Below, one piece after another: positions 3,821-47,928 of a stretch of DNA of 47,928 nt. The stretch is from a virus (taxonomy: Duplodnaviria > Heunggongvirae > Uroviricota > Caudoviricetes). Made by a program: the position numbers and the translations under genes. Where the stretch lies: the IMG/VR virus record IMGVR_UViG_2541047918_000003, one strand, 5' to 3'. The notes beneath the pieces are model-generated. The model did no database searches, had not been told where the DNA came from, and worked only from the letters and a program-made list of their open reading frames with translations. Every line of letters starts with the position of its first letter. The stretch's first letter is position 1.

Positions 3821-6800
3821 TCAGCTAATCGTGATGCCTGCAGTGGCTTTCTTCATCACAACAACCAGCAAATCGCTGATACTTGCTGTGGGATACCAGC
3901 CATTTACCCACCATGCTGATACAGAAAACTCCAGCGTCATGTGGCCGCGACCAGCAGGCATATCAATAACACCACTGTAAACCAGCGTATTATCCATCGC
4001 GGTACGGTTATAAATTTCAGCACCGTTTTTCTTCACTATCAGGCGGCATGACGAATAAGTATCGCTGTTCTCCCGCTCATGTCTGGCACCGCTGAAAGCC
4101 ACCGCCGGAATAACAATCTGCCGGTTAAACGGCTGATCGTCATAAACCCTGACGGTAATGGTTCCTGATGGCCAACGCTTCGGTGCACGGGAGTCACGAG
4201 GGAAAGCCTTACCCACTGTTTTAACGAGATCGCCTTCAATCTGGTTTGCAGACAGTTTCCCTCTGATGACACAGTTCTCGTTAATGGTGACATTATTGAG
4301 CGTGCCGGTATTCGCCGTGATGGCTCCACTGATATCCGCATTGCGGGCTGTCAGCCTGCCATCCGGCGTCAGGGAAAACGTCGGAGGATTGCCGGATGAC
4401 GTGATGCTCACCGCAAACAGTCGCTTCAGGAACACGTCGTTCATGAACAGCTGATTCCCCTGCGCCACAAACAGCGGCGTGGTGTTGCCGTTCTCCGGGG
4501 TAATCATCGCAATGCGATCGGCCTGCAGCAGAATGTTACTCAGGGTCTGACCATCAACATCCTCAATCCCCGCGCCAATCCCGGCCACATAGGGAATACC
4601 GTTTTTTGTTTTCTGCACCTTCAGCATATACATGGCATTCAGCTCATTGCGCGTGTCTGACTGAACCCGCTGGATTTGCTGTATGGTCACGGCCTGGTCA
4701 CCCAGCTTTTTATCCGTGGTCGAGGTAATTTCACTCCCTTTTTTATCCACGTACTGGCGGACCTGTGCTATCTGTCGGGCGTTTTCTGACTGCCCCTGGC
4801 TGACAGTCTGTGAGATTTCACTGCTCACCCGGTCCACTTTCTGGCTCACCTGCGCGATGGCCAGTGTCTGGTCCTCATTCTTTTTCGCAACCAGCTGCGT
4901 GAGGCTGTTTTCCGCCTTCCCGATTTTCCGGGTCACTTCTGCGATATCCGTGTCCATCCGCTGACGGATATCTTCTTCCAGTTGCGTGACCTCCGTACGC
5001 AGCGCTGAAGCATCAATGCGCTCTTTCAGTGCCTGACCCAGAAGCGTCTCATCTATCAGCCCCCGGAAAATTTCCAGATACCCTTCACCATCATTGCTGG
5101 GCTGCCCGCTGGCTTCCACAAAAGCAGATTTTCCCACCAGGTTGACGCTTCGCACGTAAAACCAGAAATCCGTCCCCGGCTTAATCCGGCTCCCCTGGAC
5201 AGTCCACTGACTGCCGGTCCCCAGATAACGGGCAGATTTTTCCACCTGTGCTGTGTTCGTGATGCGTTTTTCTGAGAACCAGAATTCAAACTGTACCGTC
5301 GGGTCATACACCGCAAGACGCGGGACCGCCGTTATCTGAAAATACCCCGGCGTCAGCTCAATGGTGGCGGGTTTTGCAGGTGCGTTAATCCGGAACGATA
5401 CCGACGCCGGATCGCCCTGCTGTCCCCGGGCATTTACCGCCCGGACCGTCAGCGTGTAACGCCCCAGCGCCAGCTGCCTGAAGCGGTAAGTGGTTTCCGC
5501 CGTCCGGGCCGTGCTGACCAGCCGCTCACTGCCGTCATCCGCTGTTACGGTCAGACGGAGCAGGAAGCTCACGCCCTTCACCACCTTCGGCGTGTCCCAG
5601 CGCGCCAGCACCTGATATTCCCCGCTGTCTGCGGTGACTTCGGCGGTCAGGTGCTGCACCGCTGGCGGCGTGACACCATTCACCGTGCCGCTCTGGTCGC
5701 CGTCAAAGTGCGCTCCGTTATCCACGATGGCCTCTTTTTCCGGTACATGCTGCACGGCGGTGATGGCATACGCACCGTCATCGTTCTCCCGGATACTCAC
5801 ACAGCGGAACAGGCGCTGGCGCAGCGTCGGCAGCTTCAGCCCCCACACGCTGTATTCGGCAACGCCGTCAGGAATACGGCTCACTTTCACCTTCACGCCG
5901 TCGGTGACGGACTGGACCTCCACGCTGACCGGATTCCCACTTCCGTCAACCAGGCTTATCAGCGTGGTGCCGGAGGATGACAGCATGATTTCACGGTCGA
6001 GCGTCAGCGTCCGGGTCTGGCTGTTCACCGCCAGCACGCGCCCGCCGGTGCTGATACCGGCATAGTCATCATCACAGATTTCAATGACATCGCCCGGAAC
6101 ATGGCGAAGCCCTTCTGCGCCGACGCTGAAGTCCACGGTCTGCGTTTCCAGCAGTTCTGTTTTAATCAGCCACAGCCCGGCGCGGTGTGCCTGCCCCCGG
6201 CTGGTACAGCCAAAGGCATCCATCTTCGTGACGTTACGACCGTAACGGGCAATGGCCTGCGTGTCCTCCACAAGCTCTGTTGCCGTCTCCCAGCCGTTAT
6301 CCGGGTCAATCCAGTTCACCTCAACGGCATTATGGCGGTCCTTCAGGGCGCTGAAGCTGTAGCGGAACGGCGCGCCATCATCCGGCATCACCACATTACT
6401 GCGGTTATAGGTCCACACCTTATCCGACGGTCGGTCCTGCACGAACGTCAGCGTCTGCCCGTTCCATACCGGCATACAGCGCATCGCCGAGCAAAAATCA
6501 CTGAGCACATCCCACGCCTTGCGCTGTGTGGTCAGGTACGCATTACAGGTGATGCGCGGCTCCGTGCCGCCAAAGCCGTCCGGCACTGACTGGTCGCAGT
6601 ACTGGCCGATGACATACAGCGCCCATTTATCCACATCCGCTGCACCAAGACGTTTCCCCATGCCGTAGCGCGGATGGGTCAGCATATCCCACAGACACCA
6701 GGCCATGTTGTTGCTGTATGCCGGTTTAAACGTTCCGTCCCAGATACCGCTGTATTGCCGCGTCTGCGGGTTATAATTCGACGGCACCTGCAGAATACGC

Positions 6801-24627: not shown

Positions 24628-24843
24628 TTACTCTCCCCGTGCAGCCTTACGACGGTCCTCTCTGATTTTGAAATACAGGTTAGTCAGATATGTCAGGAAG
24701 CCCAGAACCAGACTCCCCAGTACACCAATCGCAGCCCACTGTGACGGACTGACCTGATCAAGCCACTGTAAAAACCAGTAGCCAGCACTGCCTGCGGAGG
24801 TGCCGTAGGCAATGCCCGTTGAAATTTTATCCATGGATTTCAT
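24628..24843 (-). CDS. S: pinholin, phage 21 S-like, dual-start
   Basis: 71 aa [18 protein letters not shown]... matches S21 as recalled; Met1 and Met4 both present; GGAGGT RBS. Confidence 0.85.
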
Positions 24844-24980
24844 AGCCTCACCTCCGCAGCGAACGGATGGCGTAGTTATAAGGGGAGCGAAAAAGAAAGA
24901 ATGCGCGATTGCGCAATATGGTAACGTCAGGGTATTATCCACTGGCTGAATAGATCACTTCACGTTTTTTGTTCCTTGCC

Positions 24981-25008
24981 GCCCGTATCCATATGCGGGC
25001 TTTTTTTT
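24981..25008 (+). terminator. plus-strand intrinsic terminator in the holin-tRNA spacer
   Basis: GCCCG...CGGGC hairpin followed by T8 on the plus strand. Confidence 0.45.
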
Positions 25009-25014
25009 GCATGT

Positions 25015-25044
25015 AAAAAGGCCCCAACACATGTGCGTGGGGCC
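25015..25044 (-). terminator. minus-strand intrinsic terminator downstream of the tRNA cluster
   Basis: GGCCCCA/TGGGGCC stem followed by T5 on the minus strand. Confidence 0.45.
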
Positions 25045-25283
25045 TGAGAGTATACATGGTTTCAGTCAACTGCATGGTGCCGGGTGCCTCCCGGTGAATT
25101 CAGTACCAGCACCTGAATCCGCGATTATCCCATATACCTACTCGCTGATTGCCCCTCCGCACAGGGGGATTCACCATGCCAGTTTCTTTTAACAAACTCC
25201 CCGCAAAACAGACAACTGTCAACCGTCTGAATTGTGAGACATTTAAAAAAAGGCCCGCAAAAGCGAGCCGGGAAAAATAAGTC

Positions 25284-25360
25284 TGGCGCGTTGTACTGGA
25301 TTCGAACCAGTGACCGATTGCTTAGAAGGCAATTGCTCTGTCCGGTTGAGCTAACAACGC
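25284..25360 (-). tRNA. argO: tRNA-Arg (anticodon UCU)
   Basis: 77 nt; cloverleaf; anticodon loop CTTCTAA; T-arm GGTTCGAATCC; encoded CCA. Confidence 0.85.
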
Positions 25361-25373
25361 AGGGTACAGATAA

Positions 25374-25450
25374 TGGACCGCCATCGAGGACTCGAACCCC
25401 GCGCAACCAGCTTCGAAGGCTGGCGCTCTATCCTGATGAGCTAATGGCGG
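25374..25450 (-). tRNA. argN: tRNA-Arg (anticodon UCG)
   Basis: About 77 nt; anticodon loop CTTCGAA; T-arm TTCGAGT; CCA end; exact 5' end uncertain by 1 nt. Confidence 0.75.
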
Positions 25451-25457
25451 TATGTGA

Positions 25458-25533
25458 TGGTGGCCCTTGCTGGATTTGAACCAGCGACCTGGCGATTATG
25501 AGTCGCTCGCTCTCACCACTGAGCTAAAGGGCC
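25458..25533 (-). tRNA. ileZ: tRNA-Ile2 (anticodon CAU, lysidine type; would also score as Met)
   Basis: 76 nt GGCCCTTTAGCTCAGTGG...CTCATAA...GGTTCAAATCC...GGGCCACCA; close to E. coli ileX as recalled. Confidence 0.85.
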
Positions 25534-25573
25534 GGGAGCCGCATAATAACGACGCGTAATTAATTCTTCAATA

Positions 25574-25852
25574 TCATCCGTTCTGGCTGACTAAATCCTG
25601 TACTTCCCGAACCGTCTGCTCAAAACGTTCAGTCTCCAGCTCAACGCCAATTGCACGACGCCCGAGCGCCAGTGCCGCTTTCACTGTCGAACCCGACCCC
25701 ATGAAAAAATCTGCAATCAGGTCACCCGGACGACTGCTAGCGCTGATTATCTGCTGCAGCATTTCTGCCGGTTTTTCGCACGGATGTTTCCCGGGATAGA
25801 ACTGCACCGGTTTATGCGTCCAGACATCGGTATACGGCACCTGCGCCGTCAC
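25574..25852 (-). pseudogene. C-terminal remnant of an N6/N4 DNA methyltransferase
   Basis: 92 aa with the C-terminal motif (...KPAEMLQQIISASSRPGDLIADFFMGSGSTVKAALALGRRAIGVE); N-terminal catalytic part absent; GTG start only 58 nt below tR'. Confidence 0.6.
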
Positions 25853-25910
25853 GCCAAAATACCGCCGCAGTCGGCATTCACAACCACCAGCGCATTTAAC
25901 GTTCAGCCAT

Positions 25911-31342: not shown

Positions 31343-32205
31343 GGGCGAACCTCCTTGTCAGAACCATTCAGCCTAGAATCAACAAGTGCAGCGCCAAAAA
31401 CAGCATCACCAACACGGTCGTACAGTTTGCTAGCCAGCGGAGATTCAACGGCCTTAAGCATTGGATAAAGCTGGCTTGTCCAGATTTGATGGATTTCACG
31501 CAAATGCAGGTATACGCCTCTGGCGTTTCGTGCGACAGCTGACATATCAGACGCATCGGCACCTGATAAACTCTTCTCCATCAGGTTAAAGGCGTTGATG
31601 TATGCCTCTTTGAACCGGGCAGCACGTTTACCCGTGAAACCCATAGCAAGAAATGCAAAACCGTCTCGTGTGATTTGATAGCAAGGGAGCTTGCGTGTAC
31701 CGCCGTTCGGTTGATTTACCGAAATCGATGTCTCCGCAAAATTGCGGGCACAAAACTCTGGAGAACAATCCAAAATGCGAATCTTTTTCAGAACATCGTC
31801 ATGACGTTTAGAGAAGAAGTCAGCAACAGCCAAAGAAGATGTAACAGCCTGACCATCAACGATGGCAATTTCAGGTTGAGAGAGGGTTGGGAGAGTAGTC
31901 ATAGTGACAGCCCCGGTAGTCAGTTTTTTAGAAAACTCACCACATGGGACGCCAATCACAGAGGTGGTGAGACGTACAGGGTTGGCGTTACCGGAGACTA
32001 CCGAACCCGGCCCGACCGAAGTCGGCCCTGTACGCCCCACCATAATTTGGGCGTAGCAATGCTCATGACACGAAAAAACCGCATGAGCGCGGTTATGCTC
32101 AGTAATCAATTTCAGGACGCCAATCCCGGCACCCGCTTTATAAGGTGCGGAGACAGTGTAACGTCCCGAAATTGCAGAATCAATATTTGGTCTTGAAATG
32201 ATCAT
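31339..32205 (-). CDS. Rha-family phage regulatory protein; start uncertain (alternative ATG at 31902)
   Basis: Central motif AIVDGQAVTSSLAVADFFSKRHDDVLKKIR; no strong RBS at any candidate start. Confidence 0.55.
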   Translation of the reverse strand: MIISRPNIDSAISGRYTVSAPYKAGAGIGVLKLITEHNRAHAVFSCHEHCYAQIMVGRTGPTSVGPGSVVSGNANPVRLTTSVIGVPCGEFSKKLTTGAVTMTTLPTLSQPEIAIVDGQAVTSSLAVADFFSKRHDDVLKKIRILDCSPEFCARNFAETSISVNQPNGGTRKLPCYQITRDGFAFLAMGFTGKRAARFKEAYINAFNLMEKSLSGADASDMSAVARNARGVYLHLREIHQIWTSQLYPMLKAVESPLASKLYDRVGDAVFGAALVDSRLNGSDKEVRP

Positions 32206-38741: not shown

Positions 38742-38978
38742 ATGGGCAATGTGATTCAACTGGCTCCCAATGAATGGGTTTGTGAAAGCGTTCTTATCGC
38801 AATTACCGGGCTCAAACCAGGCACAATTCTTCGGGCCCGGAAAGAATGCTGGATGGTTGGAAGAGAGTATATTCACGTATCACCAGACGGTAATCCAAAG
38901 CCTTCCAGTGAATGTATGTATAACAGAAAAGCAATAGATGCCTGGGTCGCCTCAATGAAAAACAAACAACCCAGGTGA
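38742..38978 (+). CDS. xis: excisionase (Xis-like)
   Basis: 78 aa; immediately upstream of int; GAGG RBS. Confidence 0.65.
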   Translation: MGNVIQLAPNEWVCESVLIAITGLKPGTILRARKECWMVGREYIHVSPDGNPKPSSECMYNRKAIDAWVASMKNKQPR

Positions 38979-39033: not shown

Positions 39034-40347
39034 ATGGATAAAGTCAAATATCCAACAGGCGTCGAAAACCACGGCGGCACATTACGCATCTGGTTTAATT
39101 TTAAAGGTAAACGTGTCAGGGAAAATCTTGGTGTCCCTGACACTGCCAAGAACAGGAAGATCGCCGGGGAACTGCGGACATCAGTATGTTTTGCCATCCG
39201 CACAGGAAGCTTTGATTATGCTGCACAGTTCCCTGACTCCCCCAACCTTCAGGCTTTTGGGGTAAGTAAAAAAGAAATTACGGTGAAGGAACTTGAAGAA
39301 AAGTGGCTGGATCTGAAACGAATGGAAATCTCTGCAAATGCATTCAATCGCTATGAATCCGTTGCAAGAACGATGGTTCCGAAAATTGGAGGCAGTAAAC
39401 TGGTGTCATCGGTAACCAAAGAGGAATTGCTGTATATCAGGAAAGATTTGCTGACCGGGTATCAGAATTCAACGAAAAACAAAGCAGCAGCAAAAGGACG
39501 GAGCGTCGTTACTGTAAATTATTACATGACGACAATCGCTGGAATGTTTCAGTTTGCTGCAGATCACGGTTACTTAGAAGCAAATCCCTTCCAGGGAATT
39601 AAGCCTCTTAAAAGAGCCAGGGCAGAGCCAGATCCGCTAACTCGTGACGAATTTATTCGCCTGATAGATGCTTGCCGACATCAGCAGACGAAAAACCTGT
39701 GGTCATTGGCTGTGTACACAGGAATGCGTCACGGTGAACTGGTCTCCCTGGCCTGGGAAGATATCGATCTGAAGGCAGGAACAATTACCATCAGGCGCAA
39801 TTATACGAAACTTGGTGAGTTCACTCTACCGAAAACTGAAGCAAGCACAAACAGGGTTGTGCACCTTATCCAGCCCGCTATCAGTGTCCTGAAAAATCAG
39901 GCTGAAATGACAAGACTGGGTAAGCAGTACAACATCAAGGTGCAACTACGTGAATATGGACGTTCAGTGAACCATGAATGTACTTTCGTGTTTAACCCTC
40001 AAGTGGTTAGAAAAAGCGAACAGGTAGGTTTTGTCTACAAAGTCGATTCTGTAGGTGACTCATGGGAAACAGCCATTAAGCGTGCAGGGATCAGGCATCG
40101 AAAGGCATACCAGTCACGACACACTTATGCGTGCTGGTCATTATCTGCCGGAGCAAACCCAAGCTTCATTGCCAGCCAGATGGGCCATGCAAGTGCCCAG
40201 ATGGTATTCAATGTATACGGAGCATGGATGACTGACAGCAATGCAGAACAGATCGCAATGCTGAATCAGAAGCTGACAGATTATGTCCCAATGATGCCCC
40301 ATAGTCACCAAAGTGACACCAGAGGCTTATTAAAATCAGTAAGTTAA
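39034..40347 (+). CDS. int: tyrosine integrase
   Basis: 437 aa; conserved Arg, His-x-x-Arg (SRHTYACW) and C-terminal Tyr; GGAGG RBS; stop abuts the host gene remnant. Confidence 0.9.
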   Translation: MDKVKYPTGVENHGGTLRIWFNFKGKRVRENLGVPDTAKNRKIAGELRTSVCFAIRTGSFDYAAQFPDSPNLQAFGVSKKEITVKELEEKWLDLKRMEISANAFNRYESVARTMVPKIGGSKLVSSVTKEELLYIRKDLLTGYQNSTKNKAAAKGRSVVTVNYYMTTIAGMFQFAADHGYLEANPFQGIKPLKRARAEPDPLTRDEFIRLIDACRHQQTKNLWSLAVYTGMRHGELVSLAWEDIDLKAGTITIRRNYTKLGEFTLPKTEASTNRVVHLIQPAISVLKNQAEMTRLGKQYNIKVQLREYGRSVNHECTFVFNPQVVRKSEQVGFVYKVDSVGDSWETAIKRAGIRHRKAYQSRHTYACWSLSAGANPSFIASQMGHASAQMVFNVYGAWMTDSNAEQIAMLNQKLTDYVPMMPHSHQSDTRGLLKSVS

Positions 40348-40373
40348 TCCTTAATACCCGTCATGTTAACTGC

Positions 40374-40775
40374 GTGGAGGGTAACACCACGCTTTATGCC
40401 CTGCCGAAACCCGAGGTTGTCCTGCGCTGGCGTGAGCAGACCACAGATGACTTCCGCTTCTGTTTTAAGTTTCCGGCGACCATTTCGCATCAGGCAGCAT
40501 TACGGCATTGCGATGATTTAGTGACTGAATTTTTGACCCGCATGTCACCGTTGGCTCCGCGCATTGGACAATACTGGCTGCAACTGCCTGCCACATTCGG
40601 CCCACGGGAGCTGCCTGCGCTTTGGCATTTTCTCGATTCTCTTCCCGGTGAATTTAATTATGGGGTGGAAGTCCGCCATCCACAGTTTTTCGCCAAAGGG
40701 GAAGAGGAACAAACGCTTAATCGCGGTTTACATCAGCGCGGCGTTAATCGGGTGATTTTTATTAGACACGTTTAA
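40374..40775 (+). pseudogene. yecE: internal fragment of a DUF72-family host gene (yecE-like), truncated at both ends
   Basis: 133-aa ORF with a DUF72-like pattern (EGNTTLYALPKPEVVLRW...FRFCFKFPATISH...); frame is open upstream into the int 3' end; sequence diverges at about 40757. Confidence 0.6.
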
Positions 40776-40825
40776 ATACACCATCTAAAACGATACAATC
40801 TAGGGCATCAGTTTTGAGGTGAACA

Positions 40826-42349
40826 ATGAAACGTGCCATTTCTTACATCAGGTTTTCATCTGAGAAGCAATCCCGAGGTGATTCATTACGCCGACAGTCT
40901 AAGATGGTTAATGACTGGCTTAAGGCTCATCCTGAGTACTACCTTGACCAAGATTTATCTTTTCGTGATTTGGGGGTGAGTGGGTTCACTGGTAAGCACT
41001 TGAAAGGTGGCTTAGGTGACTTTTTAACCGCTATCGAGAAAGGGCTTGTTAAAGCTGGTGATACGCTCTTGATAGAATCTCTTGACCGTCTGTCACGTCA
41101 AGATGTAGACCAAGCAAGTGAGCTACTCAGAAACATTCTTCGCTCTGGTGTAGATGTGGTCACCTTGTCCGATGGTGAACATTACACAAAGGAAAGCTTA
41201 AAAGACCCGTTAGCTCTGATTAAAAGCATTTTGATAATGCAGCGGTCGCATGAGGAGAGTTTGCGTAAATCTGAACGTATCCAAGCTGCATGGGATGCAA
41301 AGAAAGAAGCTGCTAAAGCCGGTATCAAGATTTATAAGCGTTGTCCTGCATGGCTTAAGCTTAATGATGACCGTAAGACCTTCTCTGTGATACCTGAGAA
41401 GGTAGAAACTGTGAAGAGGTGCTTTCAATTACGGTTAGAGGGTAAGTCTATTTGGGAGATTGTCAGGACTCTTAATGATGAAGGTCACCAGACACTTAAC
41501 CAGTACAAAGCAGGTAAGTTTGGTCAAACCTCAGTGCAAGACCTTCTGAAAAATCGCTCTGTAATTGGTTACTTCACACCTAAAGGCTGTGAGGAGATAG
41601 CTGGTTATTTCCCCCCTATCATCCCTGAGACTGATTTCTACAAAGTCCAGCAACTATCATATTCTCGTTATGGAAGAAAGCCTGCTTCAGATAAACCATT
41701 GAGTGTGAATCTTTTCAAAGGTGTTATCCGTTGTTCTGAATGTGGTCATGCTTTGATTATCACAGGCTTTAGCGATACAAGAAACGGGATTTATCGTTGT
41801 CCTCTTCGTAATGAAAACCGTTGTAGTGCTAAAGGACTTTCACGTAAGCAAACCGATGGTACATTGCTTGCCCTGCTATCCCGTATAGACCGATTTGATA
41901 GCGATATGACGAATACCATAGACACACTGAAGCTACACCGTGAACACATCTCAAGCAATATTGAAAAGCTGGTACAGCTATCACTTGAAATTGAAGACTT
42001 GTCCGCTATTACCAGCAAACTAAAACAGTTAAAAGGTGAGCTATCACAGGTTGATGCGGATATCGAGAAGGAGACACAACGCCTTAAATCTATTGATGTT
42101 GGTTGTTTGTCTGATTGTGACTTGACTACAAAGGCGGGAAGGATTGAAGCACAACTGATAATCAAAAGTGCTGTTAAAGAGGTCATTTTAAATACTGCTA
42201 AACGTCGCTGTAAAGTAACTTTTCACAATAGTAAGTCAATCACCCTACCAATAACAGAAACCCCCTCAGAGGACGTTACAGAGGCTATACAGTCGCTTTC
42301 TGAAGTCACTGAGAGGGGGTTGATAGATGTTGATGAGGTTATCATATAG
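40826..42349 (+). CDS. large serine recombinase (integrase)
   Basis: 507 aa; N-terminal resolvase-type domain MKRAISYIRFSSEKQ; Cys-containing recombinase domain and coiled coil; GAGGTG RBS. Confidence 0.9.
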   Translation: MKRAISYIRFSSEKQSRGDSLRRQSKMVNDWLKAHPEYYLDQDLSFRDLGVSGFTGKHLKGGLGDFLTAIEKGLVKAGDTLLIESLDRLSRQDVDQASELLRNILRSGVDVVTLSDGEHYTKESLKDPLALIKSILIMQRSHEESLRKSERIQAAWDAKKEAAKAGIKIYKRCPAWLKLNDDRKTFSVIPEKVETVKRCFQLRLEGKSIWEIVRTLNDEGHQTLNQYKAGKFGQTSVQDLLKNRSVIGYFTPKGCEEIAGYFPPIIPETDFYKVQQLSYSRYGRKPASDKPLSVNLFKGVIRCSECGHALIITGFSDTRNGIYRCPLRNENRCSAKGLSRKQTDGTLLALLSRIDRFDSDMTNTIDTLKLHREHISSNIEKLVQLSLEIEDLSAITSKLKQLKGELSQVDADIEKETQRLKSIDVGCLSDCDLTTKAGRIEAQLIIKSAVKEVILNTAKRRCKVTFHNSKSITLPITETPSEDVTEAIQSLSEVTERGLIDVDEVII

Positions 42350-42363
42350 TTGAGATTCTATCG

Positions 42364-43137
42364 TCAGAATCGCTTGTTAGGATTCACAGAAAATTTCTTC
42401 AAAGTACTACCTGTACCAGCATTATTAAGCACCTTTGAAGCTTGCGCATTAGCGGCATCTGAGAAGGTGCTTTTTCCATTCTCAACTTTGACACTTTTAC
42501 CACAATTGATACGGGCTTGAAGTTGCTCATTAGTGAGTTCACTCGTAGAGCGATTATATAGCTCCTGACACAGCAACATACCATTACCTAGACTTGTCGT
42601 AGTGTTACCAGTGTTCTTCTTAGAAGTTGCACCACCATCATTCGTGGTAGCAGTCTTTCCAGTTGCAGCAGAAATATCAGTCTGACCAACAATAGCTTTG
42701 AAGTTAATTTCCTGAAAAGTTAGCTGGATTCTTAGACCGTTTGAAATCCCCACATCTTTAGAGGCTTTAAAACTCGTAATAATGGAATCGTCAATTTTAA
42801 TTCCGTCTTTACAGATGACCGAAATAATCTGTTTCTGGTCACGCCAGCTTTCAAGAGTGTCGATGAAGTTTTCTACTAATTGACCCTGACGAGTTAATAA
42901 TAAGCTTCCTTCATAGCCAACTACAACGACACCACTAATAGTGATTGTTCTGGGTGCTCTTTGCACATTATCTGTAACGGTTTGTCCTGATTGCATGTTC
43001 TGTGTAGTCACCTGCATAGGACTATCAAATTCCATGTTTTCAGTTGCTGATAAGGTTAAGAAGGCATCTACATTATCTCTTAAGTGGAAATAGATGCCGT
43101 CTTTGCCACTATATTTGATTTGGTTAGAGTAAATCAT
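42364..43137 (-). CDS. hypothetical protein downstream of the tape measure (possible distal tail protein)
   Basis: 257 aa from the ATG at 43137 with AAGGGGAA upstream; Ser/Thr/Asn-rich. Confidence 0.45.
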
Positions 43138-43294: not shown

Positions 43295-45343
43295 TCAATC
43301 ATCTTCTGGGAATGATGAACTTAATAGCGTAGCTTCTGCGTATTGGTCGTAGATATTACTGCTAAAGGTCATAAAGCTGGTTTCATCTGGTTTAATGGCA
43401 ACTTCACCACCAAGTGAAACTTTCACAGGCTCCTGAATACGTTTGCTCAAAGCACTAATTTCATCTCTCAGGCTTTGGATATCCGTATTCGTTAATGCCG
43501 CATCTTGTCTCATGGTGATTAATTCTGGATGCTGGAAGTTAGCAAGATTCATAGCTGCACTATTAAACCAACCTTTCACATCGTCCATAGTAAATACTGG
43601 CTTAAGTCCAGATTCTTTAGCTAACTCTGGTAATTTAGCTTGTGCTTCCATTCGTTCAGGTGTAGAGGCTAGTCTTTCATAACCTGCATAGAGAGCGCTA
43701 CCAGCTAATAGCATATTCCCAAGATTCAGTCTTGATGGTTTCCCATTCTTTCTATTCACGTTATCCGCTGTAGTATCAGCAACCTGACCTAATCTTGTGA
43801 TAGCAGTCATAAGCCCGTAAATACTTCTGGTTACACCAACAACTTTATTTACAGCAATAACACCAGCCAAGACTTTTAAACTATTAATCAAGCCAGAACC
43901 TAAAGCATCAACAACTTTCTTTTGTTCATCGGTTAAACCACGATAAGCTAATGTCACCTCATCAAAGAACGCTCGCACCTTGTAACTAATATCGGCCAGA
44001 CTATCGACACCATGTGACATATCAGTCATCAAGCTACCAAGAGATTCACCAAGACTTTTACCACTTCCACCAAGAGCGTTTAAAAGCGTTGTTAAGCTTC
44101 TTGTAAAATCTTGCAGACCACTTTCAGAACCTCTGAAGATACTATCAAGCGTGGTATTCCAAGAGTTTTTCAGGTTCCCTAATTGTGCCTGTGTACTTTC
44201 TGAAATAGCTTTCCAGCCACCTTTAGCGGTGATTTGTCTATTCAGTTCCTGAGTGACCTTCTGAAGAGTATCGGCAGATTTTAAAGCCCCCTTCTTCATG
44301 GCATCAAATAATTCCTGTTCAGTCTTTCCGGTTGCTTTAGCGAATACCTGAACCATACCAGGAACAGCTTCAGCTAGTTGCCCCTTAAGCTCTTCAGCCA
44401 TAACCTGACCCTTACCAGCCATCTGTGATAATGCTGTCAGTGCTCGCTTAATCTCTTCTTCACTTCGACCCATCAGACGAGAATAGCCAATCATACTTCT
44501 AAAAAGTTCTTCAGAACCTTGAATACCCATAGACTCTTTAGCTGAAGCACCGAAACCAGCAAACTGTGATTGCAGTTCAGCGATATCTAAACCCGTTGTT
44601 TGAGCTAATGACTTTGTGAACTCTTTTACCTGACCTGCATCTTTATCAAATACGAAATCAATTGAACGTTCAGCACTTGCACGCTGTAAACCAATTTCCA
44701 TTACTCGCTGATAAGCTGCCAAAGCACTTTGAAAAGTGTAAATAGCCGTACCCGCTTTAATTGCACTTGAAGCTAGTACATCTAAACCATTTGAAGCATT
44801 TTCACTGTGATTATTTTTGCTGGTGGTCTTGTTAAACTTAGAAAGTGTTTCACGTAGATTTTGATTTAACTTTGCTAACTCACGATTAAAAGCTTCGTTT
44901 CCAAGTGTCTTGGATTTACTACTTAATGCGTAAAACTGACTCTTAATGTATTTCTCGACAATTGGGTTAAGACCTTTCAGCTTAGACATATTCGCTGAAT
45001 AAGCCGCTGTGATTGCTCTGTTGCCGCTAATTCGTGGCTGTCTTGGCTGTCTAAGTGGCTTTAAAGTATCCTCAATTTCCGTTTTAATCTTAAACGCTCT
45101 AGTGTTTTTAAGACGCTGCTCAATCTTGTCAAAGGTCTTATTAAACTTCCTTTCAAGTTGCCCTAAAGAACTTGTCAGATTGCTGTCAAGTTGCTTGGTA
45201 TCGACCTTAAACGCTCTATTCAAATTACGTTCAATTCTTTGTGCTGACTGCAAAGCTGCCTTTTCAACTCTTTGCAAGCCCTTAATAACGTTCTCGCTGA
45301 AGCCTAGCTCAACGATAAAACTATCAACTTTAAATTGTGCCAT
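43295..45343 (-). CDS. phage tail tape measure-like protein
   Basis: 682 aa; central motif RALTALSQMAGKGQVMAEELKGQLAEAVPGMVQVFA; long coiled-coil segments; GAGGTGA RBS. Confidence 0.7.
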   Translation of the reverse strand: MAQFKVDSFIVELGFSENVIKGLQRVEKAALQSAQRIERNLNRAFKVDTKQLDSNLTSSLGQLERKFNKTFDKIEQRLKNTRAFKIKTEIEDTLKPLRQPRQPRISGNRAITAAYSANMSKLKGLNPIVEKYIKSQFYALSSKSKTLGNEAFNRELAKLNQNLRETLSKFNKTTSKNNHSENASNGLDVLASSAIKAGTAIYTFQSALAAYQRVMEIGLQRASAERSIDFVFDKDAGQVKEFTKSLAQTTGLDIAELQSQFAGFGASAKESMGIQGSEELFRSMIGYSRLMGRSEEEIKRALTALSQMAGKGQVMAEELKGQLAEAVPGMVQVFAKATGKTEQELFDAMKKGALKSADTLQKVTQELNRQITAKGGWKAISESTQAQLGNLKNSWNTTLDSIFRGSESGLQDFTRSLTTLLNALGGSGKSLGESLGSLMTDMSHGVDSLADISYKVRAFFDEVTLAYRGLTDEQKKVVDALGSGLINSLKVLAGVIAVNKVVGVTRSIYGLMTAITRLGQVADTTADNVNRKNGKPSRLNLGNMLLAGSALYAGYERLASTPERMEAQAKLPELAKESGLKPVFTMDDVKGWFNSAAMNLANFQHPELITMRQDAALTNTDIQSLRDEISALSKRIQEPVKVSLGGEVAIKPDETSFMTFSSNIYDQYAEATLLSSSFPEDD

Positions 45344-45433: not shown

Positions 45434-45526
45434 ACAAAAAAGGGAGAAACTACCGAATAATATCGATAATCTCTCCCCGTGTTATAGATTCGATAGAACC
45501 TATCTCATACACCCAACCAATCTTTT

Positions 45527-45736
45527 TTAATGCCTGACAAGATAATGTAGTTCCGTTTCACCTATAATTTGAGCATCGGAAGGGATACGGTCGATACACC
45601 ACTTTGGAATCTTGCGTGTTTTTGGTTTGCGTGAGGTGATAATTTGATGTTTGGTTTTAATTCTTAAGGCTGGCTTAGTTTGTAACTTTAAGTTTTCACA
45701 AACAGACCGAATAGTCTCTAAACGTTCTTCAAACAT
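45527..45736 (-). CDS. hypothetical basic protein (69 aa)
   Basis: AAGAGGTGA RBS; Lys/Arg-rich. Confidence 0.45.
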   Translation of the reverse strand: MFEERLETIRSVCENLKLQTKPALRIKTKHQIITSRKPKTRKIPKWCIDRIPSDAQIIGETELHYLVRH

Positions 45737-45759: not shown

Positions 45760-46467
45760 TCAAAGTGCTTTGCTGTATTTCTGAGAAATCTTCGTTAACT
45801 GCTCAATATCAGCCTGCATAGCAACCTTCTTCTGCGTTTCATAGTCACTAATAATCGCTTTCATGCTATCAAGTTCTTTTTTAAGCTTTTGCTTTAACTT
45901 ATCCAGTTTACCGGAATAATGCTTAGTCAAATTAGCTTCAGCTAACTGAAGAATCTCTTCATCTGTTTTATCACTCATCAGAATAAATTGACCAGAACCC
46001 CTTAATGCTTGTCTGACATCAATTAACCGGAACCCTTCAGGGATACTTTGAAGAACTTTAGGAACGTCTTCAATCGCTGTACCAAAACCATCATTAAAGT
46101 TTCCTTCATAATAGATAAACGGGTTTGACTTAATCTCGTAAGCAATATCATATTCTGAAGGTTTCGAGGTTTCTTCGAAGTTCTTAACCGCATCGTAAGC
46201 AATATCAAGTTTAATTCTTTGTGCTTTCAGTAGTGGGTAATATTCACGCTCAAGCTCAAGTAATGATTCAGTTTTGCATACATCAGGCATCTCTTGAGGT
46301 TCAGGAGTCACAAAGATGATTTCCTTTGGTGACATCTTTAACTCTTGCTCAAGTGCAATTCTTTCATCGTGCTCTTTGCGCTGAATAGCGATAGCTGGAT
46401 GTTCAGTCTGTGGTGACCAGTCACCGAAGCTATCAATCTTTTTACCGTTAATATATAGATTTTCCAT
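45760..46467 (-). CDS. hypothetical protein (235 aa)
   Basis: Start MENLYINGKK at the ATG at 46467 with GAGGAAAA upstream; coiled-coil C-terminus. Confidence 0.5.
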   Translation of the reverse strand: MENLYINGKKIDSFGDWSPQTEHPAIAIQRKEHDERIALEQELKMSPKEIIFVTPEPQEMPDVCKTESLLELEREYYPLLKAQRIKLDIAYDAVKNFEETSKPSEYDIAYEIKSNPFIYYEGNFNDGFGTAIEDVPKVLQSIPEGFRLIDVRQALRGSGQFILMSDKTDEEILQLAEANLTKHYSGKLDKLKQKLKKELDSMKAIISDYETQKKVAMQADIEQLTKISQKYSKAL

Positions 46468-46720
46468 TTCATTTTCCTCTTCTAAGTAATATTCAGTTTT
46501 TAAAAAGCACACCTGACAGCCTATCTAAACTTAGAAGAGACTTAAAAGGCGGTTTGCCAAGTATGCTTTTTAAAAGCTGAAAAAGCCCTAAACATAGGTG
46601 ATTCGGATATTCATGGAATCATCCTTATCTGTGAAGGGCTTTGGAGGTTTGCTTTATAACGTTAACGAAGTTTCAGGAAAAACTTTCTTTAAAAGTTCTG
46701 TTTAAAAACTCTTAAAGAAA

Positions 46721-46740
46721 GCCCTAATCATGATTAGGGC
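46721..46740. promoter_or_regulatory. 20-bp perfect palindrome, candidate operator
   Basis: GCCCTAATCATGATTAGGGC; the AGCCCTAA half-motif recurs at about 46585, 47006 and 47413. Confidence 0.45.
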
Positions 46741-46962
46741 AAAGCTGTAAAGGGTTCAATGAATGAATGATTAAGCACTTTTCGAGATGACCTCTCAGGT
46801 TATATAAGAGGCCATGTAGCGAAAAGCATTGCACCTTTCAGAATAACTATCCCTAGATGTAGATGGAATTGTTGAAAGAAATAAGAGAGCAATTCTCTCT
46901 ATAATTAAAATTATGTCATGCTTAAGGTTATTTGTCAACAGCTTTTTAACAGATTGGTAACA

Positions 46963-47040
46963 TTAATTCTTATTTACCGTATTACCTACCCAGCAACCAA
47001 CAAATAGCCCTAAAACCGTCCAGAGAATAACGAGTGTCAT
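46963..47040 (-). CDS. candidate 25-aa hydrophobic peptide
   Basis: MTLVILWTVLGLFVGCWVGNTVNKN; its ATG overlaps the stop of the upstream gene (TAATG). Confidence 0.25.
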   Translation of the reverse strand: MTLVILWTVLGLFVGCWVGNTVNKN

Positions 47041-47345
47041 TACATCACCTCACTGTAAGGGTTTAATTCATTCTGATAGGTCAAGAATACATTCAGCTTC
47101 AATAATTGCTCCGGGCTTAAATCAAGTCGGTTGCATTCGCTTGTGATAAATCTCTTGTAGTCTGGGTCTGTTACTTCCAGTTTATGAACAAAGTCACCAA
47201 GTTTAATTTCGTTGATTATATGCTTGTCAATATACGTTGACGCTTCAAAACAATGCATGAAATAGATATTAAAGCCCGACCTGTTCAGGTCATTAAGCCA
47301 ATTCATAGTTTCTTGGTCAACCATAACTTGCATTGAATAATTCAT
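47040..47345 (-). CDS. hypothetical protein (101 aa)
   Basis: AT-rich ORF; no family recognised. Confidence 0.4.
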   Translation of the reverse strand: MNYSMQVMVDQETMNWLNDLNRSGFNIYFMHCFEASTYIDKHIINEIKLGDFVHKLEVTDPDYKRFITSECNRLDLSPEQLLKLNVFLTYQNELNPYSEVM

Positions 47346-47491
47346 TTTTAAAATCCTTCCTGTATCGCATTCTAAGACGTTTTAACCCCTTTTTTAGACC
47401 ACTTAAGGCGATTCCCTAAGTTACCCTGATTAGGGGCTTAAAATCGCTTAGAATTCGTCTGGTAAAGCCTGAGAGATATGTTTTACTGTTT

Positions 47492-47707
47492 TTAGCTCAA
47501 GTCTGAGACTAATAGCCCCATCTGGTGACCGTAGTCTTTTAACCAGCTTTGCTTAACCGGAGCCTTCAGAGAATAGTTAGGGGCTGACAAGTGAAGATAG
47601 ATATCATCTTTGCCGTGGATGCTTCCCCATCCTTCGTATAACTCAAGCAAGTTTTCAAAATAACGAAATGCTTTATTAGTCTGAAGTTGTACTGTGATAG
47701 TTTTCAT
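47492..47707 (-). CDS. hypothetical protein (about 71 aa)
   Basis: ATG at 47707 overlaps the upstream stop; the track ORF starts 12 nt further upstream. Confidence 0.4.
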   Translation of the reverse strand: MKTITVQLQTNKAFRYFENLLELYEGWGSIHGKDDIYLHLSAPNYSLKAPVKQSWLKDYGHQMGLLVSDLS

Positions 47708-47928
47708 CAAGCACCCCATTCAGAAATAAGCTTAATTCCCTGCTCAAGCTGTTCAGGGTCGTTATAGTCGAGTATTACCAGTGGCTTTAATTCGTGTTTA
47801 AGCTGGTGGATTTGAGAGGGTTTTAATCGTTTGTTTGCTTTGAGGGTCACATCTTCAAATTCAGCATCTGCTAAATTCTGTCTGATTAGGTGGCTGCCAA
47901 GTGTGGAATATTGGAACCTGTAACACAT
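47707..47928 (-). CDS. hypothetical protein, possibly truncated at the window edge
   Basis: ORF runs to the last base of the window. Confidence 0.35.
   Translation of the reverse strand: MCYRFQYSTLGSHLIRQNLADAEFEDVTLKANKRLKPSQIHQLKHELKPLVILDYNDPEQLEQGIKLISEWGA

Follow-up and report, generated by a model that had tools for sequence, protein, structure and literature searches.

Two site-specific insertions in one Escherichia coli yecE gene: a phiP27-like prophage and an apparently undescribed serine-recombinase island that may be a parasite of Felix O1-like phages

The Escherichia coli gene yecE, of unknown function, is a well-documented attachment (att) site of phage phiP27 and of Stx1 and Stx2 phages, for which a 21-bp att sequence has been published (Nakamura et al. 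2021, PMC8112680). PLE of Vibrio cholerae is a satellite of the virulent myovirus ICP1 (PMC8096241, PMC7567579). PICI, cf-PICI and P4-like satellites are chromosomal islands with an integrase, a replication module and an incomplete structural gene set, and they are frequent in E. coli; they use tyrosine integrases and temperate helpers (PMC10085698, PMC8628076). The DNA considered here is a stretch of 47,928 nt, IMG/VR record IMGVR_UViG_2541047918_000003, referred to below as the window. It holds a yecE gene that has been cut by two independent site-specific insertions, which lie in tandem and are not nested: a phiP27-like lambdoid prophage with a tyrosine integrase and an island that begins with the gene of a large serine recombinase (LSR). 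The double insertion is already-known biology. The island is apparently an undescribed phage-associated integrative element and may be a parasite of Felix O1-like phages; our favoured reading, with a probability of about 0.6, is that it interacts functionally with these phages. A literature search on yecE, SpLE2, satellites of Felixounavirus or Ounavirinae, and tape measure proteins combined with LSRs yielded no description of the island family, which is absence of evidence only as subscription journals were mostly uncovered.

The yecE fragment was delimited with the uninterrupted yecD-yecE-yecN locus of CP049852 (locus L001, yecE at 1928-2746), which was compared with the window by BLAST. There is a single match: L001 2001-2406 and window 40354-40759 are 99.0% identical over 406 nt, and no part of the locus aligns outside that interval on either side. 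A first-pass annotation had described a host remnant of ~390 bp between an integrase gene (int) ending at 40347 and a break in DUF72 homology near 40757 followed by a stop, and had called for alignment to an uninterrupted yecE. The alignment bears out this description: the intact gene matches 40354-40759 only and is not continuous across 40759, and the stop codon lies at 40773-40775. The DUF72 assignment also stands, with a match of the open reading frame (ORF) 40374-40775 to Pfam DUF72 (PF01904) at E = 1.3e-31, near-identity to chromosomal yecE, and yecD and yecN as flanking genes in the near-identical complete genome AP045169. As had been noticed, the DUF72 frame is already open across the 3' end of int. 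It opens at 40317, is preceded by TGA at 40314 and overlaps int by 31 nt; phage DNA upstream keeps the frame open without providing an ATG, and the earliest potential start is GTG 40374.

The window begins ~0.66 kb inside the prophage and ends inside the island. The far ends of both elements were read in E. coli JNEC-KY173 (NZ_AP045169), in which window positions 20340-47928 are matched at 99.9% identity (24 mismatches in 27.6 kb). There, yecE consists of three pieces in correct order and orientation, bounded by yecD and yecN. Piece 1 (nt 1-96) adjoins yecD where the ~41-kb prophage has its far end, piece 2 (nt 74/86-479) is the fragment present in the window, and piece 3 (nt 473-819) borders the 11,195-bp element, whose first gene is that of the LSR, at the end remote from this gene. 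Together they rebuild the 819-nt gene exactly. The missing 5' and 3' parts of yecE are thus located where the first-pass annotation had proposed to look for them, at the far ends of the elements. The island lies outside the prophage att pair, and the elements are therefore tandem and not nested; each retains its own attL/attR pair and could therefore leave independently.

A survey of 5,426 complete E. coli genomes places the two insertions in a wider context. The yecE segment of the window is matched in 5,412 of them and each flank only in the subset that carries the respective element. Because the yecE part is near-universal and the flanks are limited to element-carrying subsets, the junctions are not due to chance. 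The island junction in yecE occurs in 222 genomes, the phiP27-type phage junction in at least 507, and both together in 11, with several flank sequence variants (H91-H101). Independence predicts 20.7 doubly occupied genomes; the nominal probability of observing 11 or fewer is 0.01, which is not corrected for phylogeny, and no mutual exclusion is concluded from the deficit. Co-occupancy is no commoner than chance, and the double hit is an ordinary coincidence at a known phage hotspot, a dispensable gene that contains the sites of two common elements. The proposal that one gene was struck twice by elements with different recombinases is upheld by the commonness of singly occupied genomes and by the missing pieces at the far ends. 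The elements are also unrelated, as had been claimed: one has a tyrosine integrase and phiP27-like lambdoid genes, the other an LSR and Felixounavirus-like tail genes.

Within the phiP27 group, the prophage is an ordinary representative that lacks Shiga toxin (stx) genes and occupies the known site. Its integrase (Int) is 95.4% identical to phiP27 Int (AJ298298, over 436 aa) and 99.8% identical to Int of phage PhiR49_2, and a short att core lies within yecE at both of its ends. This 11-bp core, TTAACTGCGTG, is exact in attB, attL and attR in a three-way comparison (BLAST overlap L001 2001-2023). To its left, twelve extra bases are imperfectly common to attP and attB, which gives an imperfect identity of 23 bp in all. 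The lambdoid att junction had been placed at about 40350-40372; it is present, with its core slightly to the right, at 40366-40376 within the 23 bp of 40354-40376. RefSeq genes of the prophage in AP045169 include a P27-family small terminase, an HK97-type head, a lambda-like tail, Q, a LexA-family repressor, xis and int. The element resembles phiP27 and the yecE-integrating Stx phages in its Int, in a site with a short core near the 5' end of yecE, in the position of int as the last gene beside attR, in its small terminase family and in its lambdoid layout. It differs from them in that no stx gene is annotated between Q and the lysis genes in AP045169, where the interval holds only three tRNAs and an STnc100-like RNA, and in that a second, unrelated element lies 377 bp downstream. 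Integration of phiP27 into yecE is reported to have been described by Recktenwald and Schmidt (2002).

The island recombinase has the domain set of an LSR (Table 1), matches the PHROG 95 integrase at 6.5e-77 and has a catalytic serine motif, Y7-x-R9-x-S11-x3-Q15, that can be read in its N-terminal translation. The gene starts at 40826 behind a ribosome-binding site of its own (GAGGTG, 5 nt upstream of ATG), and the crossover lies 66 nt before the start codon; both the start and the immediate proximity of a second core had been recognised in the first pass, as had the insertion point, given as about 40757 and now mapped to the overlap TGATTTT at 40753-40759. All seven bases of the overlap are present in attL, attR and attB. 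They are the sole sequence common to the three island sites, which have no long direct repeats, and the junction is identical in 15 further copies. The crossover sites of the two elements are 377 bp apart. When the island ends are joined, GTGTATTTAGACCTTGATGATTT meets TTATTAGACACGTTTAAATACAC to form a 46-bp imperfect dyad with arms GTGTATTTA and TAAATACAC and with its centre TT inside TGATTTT; the junction itself reads GACCTTGATGATTTT followed by TATTAGACACG, and the restored attB is GGGTGATTTTAGACAGCC. A 46-bp dyad centred on the overlap is, by its symmetry, of the form expected of an LSR attP.

The joined site exists in one metagenome contig, ERZ1090866 NODE_760 (L033; 11,473 nt), in which the right end of the island is connected to the LSR end through attP at 2941-2981 and from which yecE sequence is absent. 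Its final and initial 600 nt adjoin each other in a related island, and the contig is therefore a circularly permuted full-length copy, either an excised circle or a head-to-tail concatemer. As read from this assembled contig, the yecE-type island excises in nature, with neither trigger nor packaging implied. Other island-sized contigs (11.3-11.9 kb) from metagenome and Logan assemblies were considered as episomes and rejected, since they are integrated copies cut at their junctions: one (L022) is flanked by tonB sequence and another (L026) by yecE, with exactly 30 nt at either end. In the assembly graph of L026 (Logan SRR31670500, 11,654 nt), both island junctions are branch points, which would fit a mix of occupied and empty yecE sites, whether from mixed strains or from ongoing excision.

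Comparison with other LSR elements (phiC31, Bxb1 and TP901-1 integrases, SCCmec Ccr, XisF) shows a common three-domain recombinase, a 7-bp identity of attB and attP, a dyad attP of ~46 bp on the crossover, and a recombinase gene beside attP. Similarity of the island LSR to XisF and CcrA in NCBIfam is weak and far under the cut-offs. The cargo differs, being a small replicon-like island with two tail genes and not a phage genome or a resistance cassette, and no recombination directionality factor was identified in the island.

The island in yecE is not a solitary case. At least part of an island occurs in 570 of the 5,426 genomes (about 10%), in up to five places per genome. The same architecture of 11-12 kb (insertion sequence (IS) elements subtracted) is found at yecE, at the tonB start codon, at dinB-lafU and beside an lpxL-like gene for a lipid A acyltransferase (Pfam Lip_A_acyltrans), with LSRs of different sites only 30-41% identical. 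Homologs of a phage tape measure protein (TMP) and tube initiator (TI) are present in every family copy examined (L004, L005, L019-L023, L026-L030). From these comparisons we infer a widespread 11-12 kb family in E. coli, Shigella and Salmonella, in which LSR, TI, TMP, a small protein and the 235-aa protein probably form a conserved core beside a replication module that varies. In a tonB sister island (L020 1164-1254, L021, L022), the LSR is 36% identical and the insertion lies exactly at the tonB start codon; both junctions contain ATGACCCTTGA, and the tonB start is therefore preserved. SpLE2 of O157 Sakai (13,459 bp), similar in size to the O157 island copy, was considered as a family member and rejected; it is an unrelated CP4-44-like element at yeeX.

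In AP045169, the island runs from the LSR gene on the plus strand through minus-strand genes for a 257-aa TI, a 682-aa TMP, a 69-aa protein, a 235-aa protein and several small ORFs, to a replication-initiator-like helix-turn-helix protein, a Dam methylase, a 1.1-kb non-coding right end and attR. The tail genes provide the connection with Felix O1-like phages. The TI matches the tube initiator gp018 of phage Bas63 (PDB 9ndy_A) at E = 2e-129 with residues 5-190 almost identical, and a 544-nt stretch of its gene is 94-95% DNA-identical to more than 200 Felixounavirus genomes. The TMP matches Bas63 TMP gp017 (PDB 9ndy_F) at E = 2e-63, and its best phage homologs are all Felixounaviruses, at 27-30% over the full length. 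Both proteins are thus full-length homologs of Bas63 tail-core proteins, and TMP followed directly by TI is also the order in the phage (garuso genes 118 and 119). They differ from the phage proteins in being chromosomal, on an integrative island, and in the parts that have changed.

In Bas63, a TI hexamer fits the three-fold hub to the six-fold tube, the TI C-terminal extension (~100 aa) passes beside baseplate spacer proteins, and the last 25 residues of TMP touch the puncture apparatus and the hub (PMC12609058). The island TI shares 72-96% identity with the phage protein in its tube-like part; the C-terminal ~67 aa are island-specific, with 41-45% identity to the phage protein and 61-91% among islands. 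The island TMP retains a phage-like N-terminal ~50 aa and the C-terminal tip LLSSS(Y/F)PE(E/D)(E/D). Its middle has diverged to ~30% identity, and three intact island copies have 682-696 aa vs 735 in garuso (39-53 aa shorter). The phage-facing parts would then be those retained: the TI tube-like domain, the TMP N-terminus and the hub-contacting C-terminal tip. Among island copies, the ratio of non-synonymous to synonymous substitution (dN/dS) is 0.08-0.15 for TI and 0.18-0.29 for TMP, with synonymous divergence up to saturation, values that point to purifying selection on both genes.

Similarity to these phages extends to non-coding DNA. In the non-coding right end of the island (L002 30556-30811, ~3 kb past the window end), phage matches are only to Ounavirinae (253 records) and always fall in unannotated intergenic regions. 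Related islands have further such matches (L004 33825-33881, L019 11833-12327, L020 11085-11142) to other Felixounavirus intergenic repeats. Example targets lie just upstream of garuso gene 96 and in a repeat-rich intergenic region at 49.4-50.6 kb; garuso segments shared with islands (58-80 nt) are 57722-57777, 49667-50115 and 5652-5709. DNA of this Felixounavirus-like intergenic kind accompanies the two tail genes in every island copy examined. These stretches may be copied promoters, origin sequences or packaging signals. With regard to Felixounavirus genome ends or pac sites, one phage record is opened in that intergenic region, the termini being undefined in the annotation. Felixounaviruses are virulent and have no integrase (garuso annotation), and the island is therefore not a decayed prophage of that group. 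It appears instead to have acquired, and to keep exchanging, pieces of a phage met inside infected cells.

The island has an LSR of its own, a replication-initiator-like protein that matches PHROG 8102, 428 and 270, an iteron-rich right end, TMP and TI as its sole structural genes and a size of 11-12 kb, features that together suit the general description of a satellite. The working model that we consider most likely is a phage-parasitic, satellite-like element. The island would stay silent in the chromosome until infection by a Felixounavirus, which it might sense through the shared regulatory or origin-like DNA. The LSR would then excise it, replication would proceed from its own initiator and the iteron-rich right end, and island TMP and TI would enter phage tail assembly. 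The outcome would be either modified virions that carry the island or spoiled tails that protect the bacterial population. The leader promoter and hairpins upstream of the 235-aa gene and the terminator-like hairpin before the TMP gene would fit conditional expression. That the island is a true satellite is a tentative proposition, which we rate below even odds. A fuller version deserves the same caution: the island could be the first recognised member of a new satellite class of virulent Felix O1-like myoviruses in E. coli, Shigella and Salmonella, which would swap the tail core instead of remodelling the capsid, sense the helper through copied regulatory or origin DNA and, as a by-product, protect ~1/10 of E. 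coli strains from these phages.

Several points weigh against a functional interaction, or against its satellite form. No experiment or sequence shows Felixounavirus induction, packaging, transfer or interference. Hallmark genes of known satellite families and known defence systems were looked for in the island and not detected. The TMP gene is IS-interrupted or frameshifted in several copies, and many copies are therefore decaying. The joined attP was not found in the viral contig collection (nor in the genome contig collection), and IMG/VR matches to the LSR are prophage predictions from isolate genomes and not virome particles. The non-coding similarity is short (40-80 nt). A separate caveat concerns the insertions themselves: the far ends of both elements were read in the near-identical AP045169 and not in the window's own genome.

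Among other explanations, the one that survives best is that the island serves mainly in anti-phage defence. Its TMP and TI would be dominant-negative decoys that join Felixounavirus hubs and give dead tails, and it would spread by LSR excision combined with generalised transduction, conjugative mobilisation or transformation and not in the manner of a dedicated satellite. We consider this rather unlikely. The TI would be well suited to such a role, with a phage-identical tube-like domain and an island-specific C-terminal ~67 aa that would lie inside the extension beside the spacer proteins, as would a TMP with conserved ends and a diverged middle. Scans of island ORFs revealed no packaging-related gene (terminase small subunit or capsid-size factor), and the absence of attP from the viral contig collection points the same way. 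However, no PADLOC model of a defence system was matched, the only matches being to an orphan methyltransferase and a spurious weak one to LmuB in the LSR coiled coil; and the tight size of 11-12 kb, the replication module and the phage-like non-coding DNA suit a packaged, helper-dependent element and exceed the needs of a decoy. The two lifestyles are also compatible, and PLE combines interference with a satellite existence.

Far less probable is that the island is what remains, now inert, of an earlier temperate phage which integrated by means of the LSR, with tail genes as functionless leftovers. Only two structural genes are recognisable, most other ORFs have no assigned function, and the IS insertions and frameshifts in TMP genes would be expected of such a remnant. 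Against this, the same genes and size persist at four or more sites with LSRs 30-41% identical and marker proteins at 25-40%, TI and TMP evolve at dN/dS of 0.08-0.29 with synonymous divergence reaching saturation, and 50,697 phages yielded neither the 235-aa gene nor any closer TMP. The source of the tail genes is a group of virulent, integrase-free phages, and an excised form exists. Finally, prophages with 100-bp yecE-like attB copies at 87% identity are documented (PMC8112680), but the notion that the 406-bp DUF72 piece is such an element-borne copy, or that both recombinases belong to one composite or nested element, has a negligible probability and is excluded by the exact 819-nt reconstitution in order between yecD and yecN, by 99% identity to chromosomal yecE over 406 nt, by the position of the island outside the prophage att pair and by hundreds of genomes in which each element occurs alone at the same junction.

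If the island does interact with Felix O1-like phages, it seems closest in logic to PLE. Both are small LSR-integrated islands with their own replication initiator and a virulent myovirus as partner, and the size ratio is ~1/7-1/8 of the phage genome in each case, with ~18 kb for PLE vs ~126 kb for ICP1 and 11-12 kb for the island vs 86-88 kb for its phage. No sequence homology between PLE genes and the island was detected, and neither a tape measure protein nor a tube initiator is known from PLE. For PLE, induction, replication, packaging and interference have been demonstrated, whereas the role of the island is deduced from sequence. The likeness to PICI, cf-PICI and P4-like satellites lies in the chromosomal location, the integrase with replication module, the incomplete structural set and the frequency in E. 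coli. Unlike the island, which carries tail-core genes, they are directed at the capsid, through size redirection, small terminase genes or, in cf-PICI, whole capsids (PMC10085698, PMC8628076). No hallmark gene of P4-like elements, PICI, cf-PICI, PLE or PICMI was found in PHROG, Pfam and NCBIfam scans of the island ORFs, an indirect test that includes no dedicated satellite models; these scans returned only integrase, TMP, TI/Dit-like, replication-initiator-like and Dam matches. Such hallmarks include sid, psu, delta and alpha of P4, alpA, terS and capsid-morphogenesis genes of PICI, and repA and tcaP of PLE.

The double insertion matters mostly for annotation, in that pseudogene fragments of yecE stand for two distinct att sites. 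Software that predicts prophages joins the island to the adjacent prophage. In IMG/VR contigs L010-L018, the island is fused with neighbouring DNA into single 'viral' contigs of 22-53 kb, and automated prophage calls at yecE probably lump two elements. A functional interaction, if true, would extend phage parasitism or defence to a virulent group used in Salmonella and E. coli typing, biocontrol and therapy. It would also be the first case of a mobile island that bears its helper's tape measure protein and tube initiator, and would account for a common unannotated 11-12 kb island of which about 10% of complete E. coli genomes hold at least a part. The family also provides several new LSR/att pairs whose sites are mapped, among them yecE and the tonB start codon, and these are potential tools for genome engineering.

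Table 1. Features of the window and of the elements that extend beyond it (positions in the window; aa, amino acids)
Feature	Position	Strand	Details
phiP27-like lambdoid prophage	1-40365		~41 kb in total; attL outside the window; 99.9% match to AP045169, RefSeq annotation
Excisionase gene of prophage	38742-38978	+	78-aa ORF; excisionase family protein in AP045169
Tyrosine integrase of prophage	39034-40347	+	437 aa; Pfam Arm-DNA-bind_2 9.8e-24, Phage_integrase 3.1e-18
Prophage attR	40354-40376		Exact 11-bp core TTAACTGCGTG at 40366-40376 (yecE nt 86-96)
yecE middle fragment (DUF72)	40354-40759	+	nt 74/86 to 479 of 819; BLAST 99.0%, Pfam DUF72; DUF72 pseudogene in AP045169
LSR crossover overlap TGATTTT (island attL)	40753-40759		yecE nt 473-479; all 7 bases in attL, attR and attB
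Island-side half of attP (TATTAGACACGTTTAAATACAC)	40760-40781		Inverted partner of GTGTATTTAGAC... at the island far end
Candidate sigma-70-like promoter of LSR gene (TTTAAA-17-TACAAT)	40771-40799	+	Consensus scan, one site vs 0.7 expected; weak evidence
Large serine recombinase	40826-42349	+	507 aa; Pfam Resolvase PF00239, Recombinase PF07508, Zn_ribbon_recom PF13408
Tube initiator homolog	42364-43137	-	257 aa; annotated 'phage baseplate protein' / Dit_like
Tape measure protein homolog	43295-45343	-	682 aa; Pfam TMP_3
Predicted strong terminator-like hairpin (16-bp stem and T run)	45441-45478	-	Between 69-aa gene and TMP gene; consensus scan
Small conserved island gene	45527-45736	-	69 aa; immediately upstream of TMP gene
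Island marker protein	45760-46467	-	235 aa; NCBI name 'transposase' without domain support
Conserved non-coding leader upstream of 235-aa gene	46513-47039	-	Near-consensus promoter TTGACA-17-CATAAT (46938-46910), then hairpins
Small island ORFs (101, 75 and 73 aa)	47040-47928	-	ORF list; island continues ~4.0 kb past the window end

The remaining island genes and signals are conserved within the family. When clustered at 90% identity, the 235-aa marker protein falls into 3,073 clusters, from E. coli, Shigella, Salmonella and E. fergusonii, and homologs at 25-40% identity still lie within the same island architecture. It has no homolog among 50,697 phage genomes and no match in Pfam, NCBIfam, PHROG or PADLOC. 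Its AlphaFold model (mean predicted local distance difference test, pLDDT, 78.7) is a coiled-coil hairpin with a small alpha/beta domain, and Foldseek searches of PDB and BFVD returned nothing under E = 0.1; the name 'transposase' is apparently an artefact of annotation. A gene of 62-91 aa (mostly 67-71 aa) occupies the place of the 69-aa gene in every island copy examined, and the 69-aa protein has no family match in PHROG, Pfam or NCBIfam scans. The predicted hairpin between this gene and TMP suggests that expression of TMP and TI would need read-through or a separate signal. Upstream of the 235-aa gene, the leader promoter scores 11/12 in the scan and is invariant across 10 family members, and the ~500-nt leader contains several hairpins, two of them terminator-like. 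RNAalifold found these hairpins without compensatory changes, hence no covariation support for an RNA structure, and no Rfam family matched the island at a threshold as permissive as E = 0.1. The leader could be a small RNA or an antitermination-controlled leader.

Some minor observations concern sequences farther from yecE. In the prophage, 24843-25870 has the order Q, tRNA (Ile, Arg, Arg) and lysis genes that is typical of Stx phages, without stx genes, and the gap between Q and lysis contains an STnc100-like small RNA at 25009-25208 and a truncated methyltransferase pseudogene. In the prophage early region (31960-32148, minus strand), an Rfam C4 antisense RNA (31960-32047) adjoins an isrK Hfq-binding RNA (32072-32148). 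Beyond the window, in the island, a perfect 24-nt inverted repeat (L002 31225-31248 and 31577-31600) surrounds a 328-nt segment that abuts the attP arm of the right end. A third related repeat copy lies at L002 30808-30842, and other family members carry a gene for a small (~180 aa) serine recombinase there; the inverted repeat and this recombinase in relatives raise the possibility of an invertible switch.

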